NCBI GenBank assembly: GCA_963752475.1
Contig: CAVVYR010000007.1
Span: 320,001 to 384,000 of the forward strand
Length of the DNA stretch: 64,000 nucleotides
Direction of reading: 5' to 3'
Source: an uncultured Chloroflexia bacterium
GTDB lineage: Bacteria > Chloroflexota > Limnocylindria > Limnocylindrales > CSP1-4
Made by a program: the position numbers and the translations under genes
Shown: positions 53,165 through 60,583 of the stretch, in pieces
Numbering within the stretch: the stretch's first letter is position 1
Layout of the letters: each line of letters starts with the position of its first letter
Notes under the pieces: model-generated
The model's input: only the letters and a program-made list of their open reading frames with translations
Databases searched by the model: none
What the model was told of the DNA's origin: nothing

Positions 53165-53180
53165 TGTCAAATGGCCGACA
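53165..53180. promoter_or_regulatory. Crp/CooA-type binding site, box 1
   Basis: TGTCA-aatggc-CGACA (TGTCG-N6-TGACA on the minus strand) between the divergent peptide and Crp genes. Confidence 0.72.
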
Positions 53181-53240
53181 CCCGGCATCCGACGTCGACT
53201 CGGCTTGACGTGGCGGATGTCGCCCCGCCATGGTTGCGAC

Positions 53241-53932
53241 GTGGACCAGCAGTTGATCATCACCAGCCTGCGTGACTCGTACCTCTTCGAGCGTGCCGAC
53301 GATGACGCTCTCACGGCCATCGCGCGCCACATGCGGCGGCGCCGCTTCCGGCGCAACGAGACCATCATGCATCAGGGTGATCCCGGCGACGCCCTTCACG
53401 TCGTGAGCTCGGGCGCGGTCAAGATCGTGCTGCCCAGCCTCGAGGGTGAGGAGGCCATCATCGCCACCCTGCGCAGCGGTGACTTCTTCGGCGAGCTGGC
53501 GCTGCTCGACGGGGCTCCGCGCTCGGCCACGGCCGTGGCCTTGGAAACGACCGAGACGCTGACGCTCCCGCGTGAGGCCTTCCTCGAGATGCTCGATCGC
53601 GACAAGTCTCTGCGGGAGTCGTTGCTGTCCGGCCTCGCGCGAGAGATCCGGCGCGTCACCGGACACGTGGAGGAGCTCCACTTCCTCGACCTCGCCGGAC
53701 GGCTGGCCAGCCGCCTGGCGCGGCTGGCGCGTGAGGCCGAGCCCGAGGCCAACGAGGTCCGCCTCGACTGGCCCTATACGCAGTCGGACCTGGCCTCGAT
53801 GATCGGCGGTACCCGGCAGTCCGTTAACAAGCTGCTGTCCGACCTCGTCGACTCGCGACCTCGTGATCATCGAGAAGGACACGCTCATCATCCCCGACGT
53901 CGCAGGCACTGGAGCTCGAGGCCGAGCGGTGA
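53241..53932 (+). CDS. Crp/Fnr-family cNMP-binding transcription regulator, frameshifts near 53853 and 53905
   Basis: Phosphate-binding cassette FFGELALLDGAPRSAT; HTH TQSDLASMIGGTRQSVNK. TTGACG/CATGGT leaderless promoter. Repaired end ...IIEKDTLIIPDVAALELEAER* overlaps the next GTG. Confidence 0.92.
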
Positions 53933-54714
53933 CCGAGGCGACCGACGCCGCCCTGCAGGTCCTCCTCCGCGCCGCCCGCGAGACGGCCACCGCGCGGCGC
54001 ATCGGCGGTGACACCGAGACTGCGTTGCTGCAGTCGGTGGTGGATGCGGCCGCGACCATCTTCGATGCCGAAGCGTCGTCGATCGCGCTCTTCGAACCCG
54101 ATCCTGACCGGCTCGTCTTCCGCGTCGCGGGCGGCGAACAGGGCGACGGCGTCGTCGGCATCTCGGTCGCGCCGACGCACGGCATCGTGGGCTACGTCTT
54201 CTCGACCGGCGAGCCCATCGCGCTCACCGACGTCGGCTCGGACCCGCGCTTCGACAAGGGCACGGCAGAGAAGACCGGCTACATGCCGCGCAGCATCGCC
54301 GCCGTGCCGCTCATCGATGCCGGAGCCACGGTCGGCGTGTTGCAGGTGCTCGACAAGCACTCCGAGGAGTCGTTCTCACTGCGCGACATGGACCTGCTGG
54401 GTGTCTTCGCCCGGCAGGCAGCGGCAGCCATCGAAGCCGCGCGCGTGGGCCGTGACTCCGAGCGGCTGCTGCGCAACGCGCTGGTGGCCATCGGTGGTGA
54501 GGCGCTCGACACGGAGGCGCTGGATGCGCTCATGGCCGCTGCGGCCGAGGAGCTCGACCGTGACGACGAGGCACCGTTCTGGCGGCTGGTGGACCAGGTG
54601 GCGCAGCTGCGCGACACCAACGACGTCGATCTCGAGTTGGTGGAAGAGATCCTCGAGGTCGTGTCCCGGCATCGCTCGCACCGCCTCGGTCGCTACGGTC
54701 GCCGGCCCCGGTGA
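53929..54714 (+). CDS. Stand-alone GAF domain protein
   Basis: EASSIALF, GIVGYVFSTGEP, DPRFD, SIAAVPL and VGVLQVLDK...FSLRDMDLL (NKFDE-like GAF); helical C-terminal extension. Confidence 0.9.
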   Translation: MTEATDAALQVLLRAARETATARRIGGDTETALLQSVVDAAATIFDAEASSIALFEPDPDRLVFRVAGGEQGDGVVGISVAPTHGIVGYVFSTGEPIALTDVGSDPRFDKGTAEKTGYMPRSIAAVPLIDAGATVGVLQVLDKHSEESFSLRDMDLLGVFARQAAAAIEAARVGRDSERLLRNALVAIGGEALDTEALDALMAAAAEELDRDDEAPFWRLVDQVAQLRDTNDVDLELVEEILEVVSRHRSHRLGRYGRRPR

Positions 54715-55538
54715 GCGAGGCCTCGACGCTACGGCCGGCCTGGTCTGAGCCGTTCGTCGGCGAGGCCGTGGCCGAGCTGGCGCGAGCAGCGCGCCTCGAC
54801 CGCATCGACCGCGAGTGGGCGTTCGAGGGCGCGACCGGCAAGGGTGTGACGGTGGCCATCATCGACAGCGGCATCGAGGCCGATCACCCGGCGGTCTCGG
54901 GCCGCGTGCGCCGACAGGTGGCGGTCGAGCTGCAGGACGGCGACCCGGTCGTGGTCGATGACGAGTGCGGCGATCTCTTCGGCCACGGCACCGCCTGTGG
55001 CGGGCTCATCACGGACCTCGCGCCCGACGTCGAGCTGGTCTCGGTGCGTGTCCTCGGCTCCGACCTGCGGGGCAGGGGAGCGGCGTTCCTCGGGGGGCTC
55101 GAGTGGGCCATCGAGCATGAGGTGGATGTGGTCAACCTCTCGCTCTCCTCCAAGAGCGAGGTCCTCTTCGCCGACTTCCATGAGGTCGTCGACCGGGCCT
55201 ACTTCGCCGGAGTGACGCTCGTGAGCGCGGCCAACAACGCACCCGGTGCCTCGTACCCCTCGCTCTTCTCGTCGGTCGTCTCGGTCGCGGCTCACGAGGA
55301 GCCCGACCGCTGGCGCTGGTACTACAACCCGCGTCCGCCCGTGGAGTTCGGGGCCTGGGGCGTGAACGTGCCCATCGCCTGGAAGGACGGCGGCTCGTCG
55401 GTGGCCACGGGCAACTCCTTCGCGGCACCGCAGATCGCCGCGCTCGCGGCCCTGCTGCGCTCGAAGCACCCGGGCCTCACCCCCTTCGAGGTCAAGGCCG
55501 TCCTCGCCGCCACAGCAGACCTGTCAGCACCCGATTGA
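54711..55538 (+). CDS. S8 subtilisin-like serine peptidase, cytoplasmic
   Basis: Triad motifs IIDSGI, HGTACG and GNSFAAP; no signal peptide or obvious prodomain. Confidence 0.93.
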   Translation: MSEASTLRPAWSEPFVGEAVAELARAARLDRIDREWAFEGATGKGVTVAIIDSGIEADHPAVSGRVRRQVAVELQDGDPVVVDDECGDLFGHGTACGGLITDLAPDVELVSVRVLGSDLRGRGAAFLGGLEWAIEHEVDVVNLSLSSKSEVLFADFHEVVDRAYFAGVTLVSAANNAPGASYPSLFSSVVSVAAHEEPDRWRWYYNPRPPVEFGAWGVNVPIAWKDGGSSVATGNSFAAPQIAALAALLRSKHPGLTPFEVKAVLAATADLSAPD

Positions 55539-59525: not shown

Positions 59526-59545
59526 CCGGGCGCTACTCTCGGAGC

Positions 59546-60538
59546 ATGGCCTCCAACCTCTACTTCGCCGACTGCCACAACGACCTGCTGCTGGGCGTGA
59601 CCTGCCAGCGCGATCTTGGGAACGACGACCTCTTCGGTGACTTCTGGCTGCCGCAGCTGCGCGCCGGGAACGTGCGTCTGGTGGTGCTGCCGGTCTACAC
59701 CGAGGACTGGTTCACCGGCGAGGCCGCTCTTCGACGAGCGCTGACCACGGTCGAGACTGCTCGCCAGATGGCCCAGCGCCATGGCGAGGAGGTGGCTCTG
59801 GTCGCGACCGCCGGCGAGCTCCGAGCCGCCCTCGACAACGGTCGCATCGCGCTCGTCCTGGCCTTCGAGGGTATGGAACCCGTGGGTGCCGACCTCGACC
59901 TCCTCGACACCTTCTGGCACCTCGGCGTGCGCATGGCCTCGCTGACCTGGAACCGCCGCACGCCCTTCGCCGATGGTCTCGGCGAGCGACGCACCGGTGC
60001 GGGCCTGACCAACCTCGGCGAGAAGGCAGTCGAACGCATGGAGCGCCTGGGCATGATCGTCGATGTCAGCCACCTCTCCGACCCTGGCTTCGACGACGTC
60101 GCGAGGGTGGCGACGCGGCCGTTCGTGGCCAGCCACTCGTCCTGCCGCGACGTCTTCGACCACCCCCGCAACCTGCGTGACGACCAGCTGCGCACCATCG
60201 CCGAGTCCGGTGGCTTCGTGGCCATGAACGCGATGAGCGATTTCGTGGGCGAGGGTTCGACGGTCGACACGTTCCTCGATCACGTCGAACACGCGCTGCG
60301 CCTCATCGGCGCTGAGCATGTGGGCCTGGGCCTCGACTTCCTGGCCGACACGGAAGCGCACTCGCTGCCCGCCTCGGCCCAGCCCGAGCCCGGCTTCTTC
60401 ATCGACGGACTGGAACGACCGGCCGACCTGCCAGCCCTCGGTGCGCGGCTCGAGCAGCGCATCGGTCAGGATGCGGCCCGACAGGTCGCGAGCGGCACGT
60501 TGATCGGATCGCTCGAGCGCCTGCTGCCCGCGGACTGA
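59546..60538 (+). CDS. M19 family (membrane/renal-type) dipeptidase
   Basis: DCHND, FEG, LTWNR, VDVSHLS, ASHS, HPRNL and HVGLGLDF motifs. Confidence 0.92.
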   Translation: MASNLYFADCHNDLLLGVTCQRDLGNDDLFGDFWLPQLRAGNVRLVVLPVYTEDWFTGEAALRRALTTVETARQMAQRHGEEVALVATAGELRAALDNGRIALVLAFEGMEPVGADLDLLDTFWHLGVRMASLTWNRRTPFADGLGERRTGAGLTNLGEKAVERMERLGMIVDVSHLSDPGFDDVARVATRPFVASHSSCRDVFDHPRNLRDDQLRTIAESGGFVAMNAMSDFVGEGSTVDTFLDHVEHALRLIGAEHVGLGLDFLADTEAHSLPASAQPEPGFFIDGLERPADLPALGARLEQRIGQDAARQVASGTLIGSLERLLPAD

Positions 60539-60540
60539 AC

Positions 60541-60583
60541 TGTCGCCTGCTTGACAGACATCGCGCGCAGAGCGTCGTACGGT
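60541..60583 (+). promoter_or_regulatory. Class II Crp-type promoter, box 3 plus -10
   Basis: TGTCG-cctgct-TGACA centred at 60548.5; TACGGT begins 29.5 nt downstream; aligns without gaps to 55548-55612. Confidence 0.8.

Follow-up and report, generated by a model that had tools for sequence, protein, structure and literature searches.

Three boxes around a crp gene

The stretch of DNA analysed here (the window: 64,000 nucleotides (nt), positions 320,001 to 384,000 of contig CAVVYR010000007.1, genome G000) carries the gene for a Crp-type regulator with an arginine-glutamine (R-Q) recognition helix and three copies of the palindrome TGTCG-N6-TGACA (boxes 1 to 3), each preceding a small open reading frame (ORF) that is followed by a hairpin. 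The motif is conserved in two families of Limnocylindria, little-studied soil and sediment Chloroflexota, where it most likely serves a Crp-type activator that turns on very small, unannotated genes for peptides together with genes for a nucleotide cyclase and for related signalling. The order at the locus is purH, a peptide gene on the minus strand, box 1, crp, a GAF-domain gene, an S8 subtilase gene, box 2, a mini-protein gene, a cyclase-STAND-TPR gene, an M19 dipeptidase gene, box 3, a second mini-protein gene and metG. Its features, with predicted transcription start sites (TSS) and lengths in amino acids (aa), are as follows.

52879..53052, minus: 57-aa DDDVEGH-motif mini-protein (ORF; acidic leader, DxEGH, C-terminal helix), candidate target of box 1
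53110-53115, minus: alternative -10 TACAGT, 49 nt past box 1, predicted TSS 53103 (choice of the earlier sequence-only reading)
53115..53120, minus: preferred -10 CACGCT, 44 nt past box 1, predicted TSS 53108 (from spacer length)
53153..53157, minus: extra TGTCG half-site, 7 nt past box 1, at -49..-45 (from offset conservation and column profile)
53165..53180, minus: box 1, TGTCG-N6-TGACA (exact match), predicted centre about -64.5 of the peptide gene
53205..53234, plus: putative sigma70-like promoter of crp itself (TTGACG, 18 nt, CATGGT; from sequence)
53241..53932, plus: crp, about 229 aa, cyclic nucleoside monophosphate (cNMP)-binding and helix-turn-helix (HTH) domains (PF00027, PF13545)
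53811..53831, plus: recognition helix TRQSVNK (equivalents of R180, Q181 and K185; by alignment)
53929..54714, plus: GAF-domain protein, translationally coupled to crp (PF13185)
54711..55538, plus: small S8 subtilase, coupled to the GAF gene, candidate peptide-processing protease (PF00082)
55548..55563, plus: box 2, class II (-41.5); -10 TACCTT at 55585-55590, predicted TSS 55597
55612..55827, plus: mini-protein of about 70 aa (ORF; N-terminal helix, hydrophobic tail); hairpin at 55838-55877
55929..59525, plus: Zn-ribbon / class III cyclase / AAA (STAND) / TPR protein (Pfam)
59546..60538, plus: M19 membrane-dipeptidase-family gene (PF01244)
60541..60556, plus: box 3, class II (-41.5), copy of the box-2 unit; -10 TACGGT at 60578-60583, predicted TSS 60590
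60611..60850, plus: 79-aa paralogue of the box-2 mini-protein, His-rich tail; hairpin at 60890-60924

An earlier sequence-only reading had reported the three boxes with identical half-sites at these positions, each upstream of a small ORF, and had centred two of them 29.5 nt before a TAnnnT hexamer, that is, at -41.5. All of this is borne out, and boxes 2 and 3 each stand 21 nt ahead of their -10 hexamer. Boxes 2 and 3, like their counterparts in relatives of the genus, show the class II register, with TSS positions predicted from the -10 hexamers; the RNA runs consisted of contigs. A MerR-type spacer site was rejected because the dyad stands upstream of the spacer.

Exact matches to the palindrome number three in the window, a count reached by none of 100 dinucleotide shuffles (mean 0.14, maximum 2). 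With one mismatch allowed, four matches are found against a shuffle mean of 4.09, which is no excess, so the signal lies in the exact motif. Alignment indicates that boxes 2 and 3 are copies of one promoter-leader-ORF-hairpin unit, of which relatives show a single copy, and the window thus holds only two independent sites. The genome-wide scan for TGTCR-N6-YGACA that had been proposed returned 11 sites, with the N6 spacer not enriched over other spacers; the evidence therefore consists of clustering and conservation, and the regulon appears to be small and local rather than global. Two of the 11 sites (C1:170100 and C8:520408) fall inside coding sequences and were set aside, and three (C6:82123, C8:555128 and C29:225505) lack either of the promoter designs described below. 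Exact TGTGA-N6-TCACA sites are absent from the genome. A position-weight scan of the genome, trained on other genomes, placed boxes 3 and 2 at the top (37.7 and 35.9; next 14.7), while the scan for the tandem form placed C7:102576 and box 1 first (30.2 and 27.4).

Conservation and the tandem promoter

The motif, its two spacings, its conservation, its co-occurrence with the regulator and the identity of its target genes are established directly from the genomes compared. Conservation in orthologous loci, on which the sequence-only reading had staked its proposal, is evident in an exact box at 19 of 20 crp loci fetched from the genus, and a box followed after 21 or 22 nt by TAnnnT occurs in 24 of 49 genus genomes versus one for the reversed control. 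Of 86 DxEGH-type motif clusters (a set that includes loose noise hits and excludes two duplicate loci), 67 have a box with no more than one mismatch in the 330 nt preceding them; among 3000 random windows the figure is 173 (5.8%). The association extends beyond the linked gene, as in genus g42 crp is unlinked and the box heads DxEGH genes in trans in three of five genomes.

At the level of the class, a motif-only scan of 251 genomes detected the strict tandem motif in 88 and its reversed control in none. An R-Q Crp was found in 124 of the 251, and the strict tandem motif accompanies it in 87 of these 124 genomes versus one of the 127 without it. The contrast holds within family f1 (39/59 vs 0/14) and family f4 (47/64 vs 1/19), and families f2, f3 and f5 have neither motif nor R-Q Crp. 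Genomes positive for both include three unpublished ones (G165, G200 and G320). These genomes are related and not independent, so that P values overstate the association. Both scans were confined to Chloroflexota, and outside the class 9 of 266 genomes match versus 8 control hits, which is the background level. Anaerolineae-type homologues with R-V helices have no DxEGH genes and one stray box.

Box 1 belongs to a second promoter design, and the sequence-only reading missed part of it: a conserved extra TGTCG half-site at 53153-53157. Aligned DxEGH promoters read palindrome, 7 nt, TGTCG half-site, TT at the -35 position (columns 38-39) and -10, and of 60 exact boxes that precede DxEGH ORFs, 54 are followed by GTC at the half-site offset. 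In 56 of 63 other tandem promoters, box and -10 are separated by 44-45 nt, and in none of the 63 by 49-50 nt; box-1 orthologues have CAnnnT at 44-45 nt in 9 of 10 cases, and 9 of 10 contain both this hexamer and one of the TACAGT type. With a spacing of 44-45 nt, the palindrome is centred at -64.5/-65.5, and the half-site, at -49..-45, forms the upstream half of a -41.5 site, 23 bp downstream of the palindrome. TACAGT does lie 49 nt from box 1, as had been stated, but the comparison makes -64.5 the more likely position of the box and the -69.5 drawn from that hexamer the less likely one. The -35 hexamers of box-1 orthologues are poor, which suggests dependence on an activator.

Two designs would thus serve one regulator. 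In the first, a lone palindrome is centred at -41.5 (boxes 2, 3 and a cyclase box 3.2 kb past the window). In the second, seen at box 1 and most DxEGH genes, the palindrome lies at -64.5/-65.5 and a half-site follows 23 bp downstream in the -41.5 register, an arrangement most simply occupied by two adjacent Crp dimers. In one locus (L125), three exact boxes stand in tandem upstream of crp (-135, -115 and -94), 20-21 bp apart.

The regulator and competing readings

The crp product combines the N-terminal cNMP-type domain (PF00027, E 3.9e-28) and C-terminal Crp HTH (PF13545, E 3.7e-10) that characterize the CRP/FNR superfamily. One surplus base each at 53851 and 53901 probably reflects faulty assembly: short-read contigs of run X1, which may be the source sample, have neither, and RNA run X5 also lacks the one at 53901. 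What the sequence-only reading called the 'repaired' Crp is thus probably native. The metG (60975-62650) and TatD-like (63000-63822) genes are also split by frameshifts, probably assembly errors of the same kind. The helix had been read correctly as TRQSVNK, and it aligns to SRETVNK of GlxR and the Mycobacterium tuberculosis CRP (Rv3676). R and Q are invariant in 38 aligned orthologues, a set selected for R-Q, and this is the only R-Q Crp found in the window's genome.

The designation 'CooA-like' suits the helix and the motif; the protein is otherwise GlxR-like and not a CooA. Among the best 60 of 85 PDB matches, GlxR and M. tuberculosis CRP are the closest structures (E about 1e-34), the predicted structure of an orthologue (L087) matches GlxR/CRP folds, and CooA appears neither among these 60 nor among the fold matches listed for the Crp. 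The haem ligands of CooA include a cysteine, and its cNMP pocket is lost. The window Crp has no cysteine, keeps the G-E / R-S nucleotide pocket (phosphoribose contacts E72 and R82-S83, GEL...RS in both the window protein and L087) and has K, not T, at position 185; no coo genes occur among the clustered neighbours of window-type loci. GlxR and M. tuberculosis CRP differ in turn by an R-E helix with TGTGA-type sites (TGTGA-N6-TCACA in the CAP/GlxR type) where the window Crp has R-Q, and the latter lacks the T-N nucleobase motif.

A rule tying residue 181 to operator recognition has been described (PMC1274295). The CooA regulon of Rhodospirillum rubrum and Desulfovibrio shares Q at 181 and a TGTCG-N6-CGACA-type operator (PMC545781, PMC2677863), with the consensus TGTCGGCnnGCCGACA (PMC545781). 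Escherichia coli CRP carrying the Gln181/Thr185 of CooA activates a C7-G8 operator, as does the Ala181/Arg185 form (PMC2677863). Cmr (Rv1675c) of M. tuberculosis, with Pro at 181 where the window Crp has Gln, binds TGTCA-N6-YGACA; its motif by systematic evolution of ligands by exponential enrichment is TGTCA-N6-(C/T)GACA with discriminators 4C and 13G, and M. tuberculosis also has an R-E CRP with a regulon of its own (PMC4705688, PMC5758884). The targets of Cmr are DosR-related and not peptide genes. Alongside CooA and Cmr, the window protein may exemplify a third way of achieving TGTC-type specificity. Dedicated Crp proteins wired to cyclases are known in the alphaproteobacteria Sinorhizobium meliloti (Clr) and Rhodospirillum centenum (gcyBC-cgrA), where a CgrA site lies in the cyclase operon promoter; their motifs differ, and the available text of that source describes no repeat-peptide, S8 or MFS-cNMP cassette (PMC10187061). 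The regulator family, the motif type and the class II geometry are already known, whereas searches of open-access text returned no description of the regulon, the 23-bp palindrome-plus-half-site design or the residue-181 switch considered next.

The same genome encodes a second Crp (C29) with the R-E helix TRETLAH. It heads an operon with a canonical TGTGA-N6-TCACG 21 nt before TAGATT (G000:C29:228781-228796; L006:7282, minus strand), a -41.5 site conserved in several relatives; this second regulon is likely autoregulated. Loci of this paralogue have GTGA/GTGG-type sites in 8 of 14 cases and TGTC-type sites in none of 14; as the owner of a TGTGA site, it was rejected as the binder of the TGTC boxes.

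Genus g3 provides a natural test of the rule linking residue 181 to base 4 at a fixed 23-bp palindrome-plus-half-site promoter. In one clade of 26 cassettes (SH-like approximate likelihood ratio test 100, in a tree built by a quick method only), the cassette's own Crp either has an R-E helix or has been lost. Of these 26, 24 retain a TGTCR-N6-YGACA palindrome, yet 21 of the 24 have a GTG half-site, against GTC in 7 of 7 R-Q cassettes of the same genus; all three deviant half-sites belong to loci without crp. Of the 26 genomes, 22 carry an unlinked R-Q paralogue, one has a frameshifted copy and two have partial or broken ones; in the remaining genome none was found. These sequences are most simply explained if the palindrome is read by an R-Q protein, with the half-site as a genuine point of Crp contact that tracked the Q-to-E change. 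This simple reading is limited by the lack of an E72 equivalent in the g3 R-Q paralogue (27 of 27 readable). Complementary pocket changes are seen in g3 (L308-L337, L259-L283), where the inspected R-E cassette Crps carry His for R82.

We consider it highly probable, from the combined sequence evidence, that a GlxR-family, Limnocylindria-specific R-Q Crp activates the boxed promoters and that in this genome it is the product of the adjacent crp; binding and activation, like two-dimer occupancy, are inferred. Of the claim that the boxes define the regulon of the local Crp, the regulator remains the best candidate, being the only R-Q Crp of the genome, co-occurring with the motif and coexisting with an R-E paralogue that has its own TGTGA site; the regulon is wider than the three small ORFs. 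Several observations weigh against this assignment. Among the 124 Crp-positive genomes, 37 lack the strict motif, and 9 of 18 Crp loci checked in strict-motif-negative genomes have no box within 4.5 kb (one of the nine has a two-mismatch box and one is an R-E case; several of the 18 had near-matches). Co-occurrence was counted among kin and partly reflects co-inheritance of the cassette. Since Ala181 and Pro181 also give TGTC-type sites, it is the loss of Glu181 and not Gln itself that predicts the motif, and Gln181 is not uniquely diagnostic (PMC2677863, PMC4705688). In g3 the palindrome is still TGTC beside an R-E Crp, so 'local Crp' is not a general description; the coupled Q-to-E and GTC-to-GTG change is a single event on the tree, and a TGTGA half-site is kept in 9 of 12 loci without a cassette crp. 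The ligand pocket is atypical as well: the phosphate Arg is replaced by His in 12 of 38 orthologues, the R123 position is Glu, and in place of the T127/S128 nucleobase motif (defined with the pocket of cAMP receptor proteins in PMC10187061) the family reads V/I/L-T, and the window Crp V-T.

The most serious competitor accepts Crp binding and changes its sign. At whiB1 of M. tuberculosis, CRP sites at -58.5 and -37.5, 21 bp apart, form an adjacent strong-plus-weak tandem in which the upstream site activates and the weaker one represses at high signal (PMC2844151), and this promoter is by analogy the nearest precedent for the tandem design, with a repressing weak site. The sites here (-64.5/-41.5, 23 bp apart) likewise pair a strong upstream with a weak adjacent downstream site, so a band-pass or repressive tandem is conceivable; we hold it to be rather unlikely, as the weak site here occupies the activating -41.5 register and leaves the -35 free, and the poor -35 hexamers of box-1 orthologues point to activation. 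The sequence-only reading had also suggested that box 1 autoregulates crp, and the putative crp TSS indeed lies some 68 nt past the box, with 28 of 81 crp loci having a box within 200 nt. The suggestion fares poorly, and crp autoregulation as the main role of box 1 seems quite improbable: 53 of the 81 loci have no box within that distance, and in no locus is the half-site oriented toward crp, as against 18 in which it faces the other way. Measured from crp, the box position varies (-57 to -135, and with insertions -1253/-1285), whereas its spacing from the peptide gene is fixed, and crp keeps its own consensus-like -35, the pattern TTGAC..CAT.GT..GTG preceding crp orthologues with and without a box alike; its transcript is probably leaderless, with GTG at +1.

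A different reader of the palindrome would fit the g3 cassettes, which keep their palindrome and alter only the half-site even though the neighbouring Crp is R-E or missing; genome G596 (87% complete) has no Crp HTH match at all, and BTAD genes carry boxes in some genera. Another co-inherited regulator (BTAD/SARP or an unseen factor), with Crp reading only the downstream half-site, is nevertheless very unlikely. The unlinked R-Q paralogue is present in 22 of those 26 genomes and frameshifted in one more, an N6 dyad at exactly -41.5 is Crp-family geometry, SARPs bind direct repeats, and no non-Crp regulator is constant among the neighbours. We give next to no credence to the view that TTGACA in the right half is a sigma70 -35 and the palindrome incidental. 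Class II sites do read T at position 11, giving TTGACA, in 15 of 27 cases, but the spacer to the -10 is 21 nt and not 16-18, the left half varies just as little and many right halves read CGACA; a promoter scan found no such promoter, and the -35 reading was rejected on that basis.

Targets and their possible circuit

The DDDVEGH proteins are acidic, are found class-wide and often contain 2-9 tandem cassettes; the 57-aa window peptide, divergent from crp, has orthologues of 44-84% identity and no match in Pfam or NCBIfam. The operator alone locates such hidden small genes of the cassette and would define a regulon of peptides, cyclase, phosphodiesterase, BTAD activators and a candidate small RNA, which gives a way into the regulation of a peptide/protease/exporter cassette that is widespread but unannotated in uncultured Chloroflexota. 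Of 40 motif-scan rows, 13 led to DxEGH genes, and other targets were BTAD activators (at least six ORFs listed, one tested), a hydrolase and an ORF-less hairpin RNA. Constant neighbours across 70 related loci are Crp (66), GAF (43), S8 (36) and an MFS-cNMP transporter (33), the last of which was not found in the window's genome. The S8 subtilase gives mycosin- and QhpE-like matches, both below cut-off. The GAF/S8/MFS-cNMP cassette probably processes and exports the peptides. S8-processed multicore precursors (cyanobactin PatA/PatE, QhpE) likewise involve a small cytoplasmic subtilase beside a repeat-cassette mini-protein, and in AfsR/AfsS a STAND-TPR sensor is linked to a small repeat protein; the loci described here differ in having no modifying enzymes among the constant neighbours and in control via a Crp operator. 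The M19 dipeptidase gene is not constant in the module, and its position varies among relatives.

The cyclase-STAND gene in the window has no box of its own (best upstream match with four mismatches). A fourth, exact box at C7:387208, 3.2 kb past the window, stands 22 nt before TACGAT and heads a cyclase-STAND paralogue (C7:387265) whose transcript is predicted to be leaderless. The same arrangement occurs in G024, G004, G068 and G002, which were partly selected by motif. The C7:387208 box also lies 24 nt from the TAnnnT of a divergent acyl-ACP thioesterase-like gene in both G000 and G024. The window cyclase has what we take to be an adenine-type Lys, both metal aspartates, N-x-x-x-R and a non-polar residue at the second specificity position. 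At four of four distinct R-Q paralogue loci, a one-mismatch box lies 102-103 nt before a divergent Rv1339-like hydrolase gene. These loci were found by Crp homology and lack DxEGH, GAF and S8, and the motif is therefore not tied to the peptide cassette; three further hydrolase loci came from the motif scan and so match by construction. The best NCBIfam match of one such hydrolase (L141) is NF041851, at 140.6 bits versus a cut-off of 400, and its motif reads GHMHADH. Atypical class II phosphodiesterases (Rv1339/CpdA) have a metallo-beta-lactamase fold and a [T/S]HxHxDH motif (PMC9293780).

Because boxes stand before cyclase and phosphodiesterase-like genes, the Crp ligand is likely a cyclic nucleotide. 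Through the regulon, DxEGH repeat peptides and helical mini-proteins would be tied to a cyclic-nucleotide circuit made up of the STAND-TPR cyclase and the Rv1339-like phosphodiesterase. A bolder proposal, possible though doubtful, is an undescribed closed peptide/cNMP autoinduction circuit with positive (cyclase) and negative (phosphodiesterase) feedback. The STAND-TPR cyclase would make a cNMP, perhaps not cAMP; the R-Q Crp would then induce DDDVEGH multicore peptides, more cyclase and the phosphodiesterase; and the GAF-coupled subtilase and MFS-cNMP pump would cut and export peptides that feed back. The tandem promoter would be a two-dimer device, turned in one clade into a two-paralogue gate (R-Q at the palindrome, R-E at the TGTGA half-site).

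The mini-proteins behind boxes 2 and 3 are 39% identical over 46 aa and probably share a helix with the tail of the peptide (hhalign 86%, E 4.9e-6, above all 30 shuffles; modest for short charged helices). Orthologue comparison suggests that the box-2 mini-protein starts at 55618. The His-rich tail of the box-3 mini-protein replaces the hydrophobic tail of its paralogue, with similar tails in L049, and the hairpin at 60890-60924 has a fold z of -2.5. Proteins of 80-99 aa divergent from crp (L096-L101, L116, L124, L135, L137), often near a single box, have an M-F/L-A/G-P-N start, a hydrophobic segment and a Gly-rich end; compared with the box-2 family, the divergent mini-proteins of family f4 scored no higher than shuffles. 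Sequence-atlas look-ups returned hypothetical Chloroflexota clusters only.

The tandem box at C7:102576 precedes a 64-aa secreted-looking protein with a signal-peptide-like sequence and a Gly-rich tail (G000:C7:102576-102900), whose G009 counterpart is also boxed. A degenerate second promoter copy without a clear ORF lies 1.45 kb away (C7:104028). The ORF-less RNA (L199-L204, box at 1501) is GC-rich and multi-hairpin with G-rich loops, lies downstream of a tandem box beside an mdh/ldh-like gene and had no Rfam match at five loci; in other genera (L183, L186, L211), BTAD genes have a 5' leader made of similar hairpins. In L042 (G010:C3:268845) a class II box stands directly before metG and the mini-protein gene is gone, so metG may have been captured by the class II promoter.

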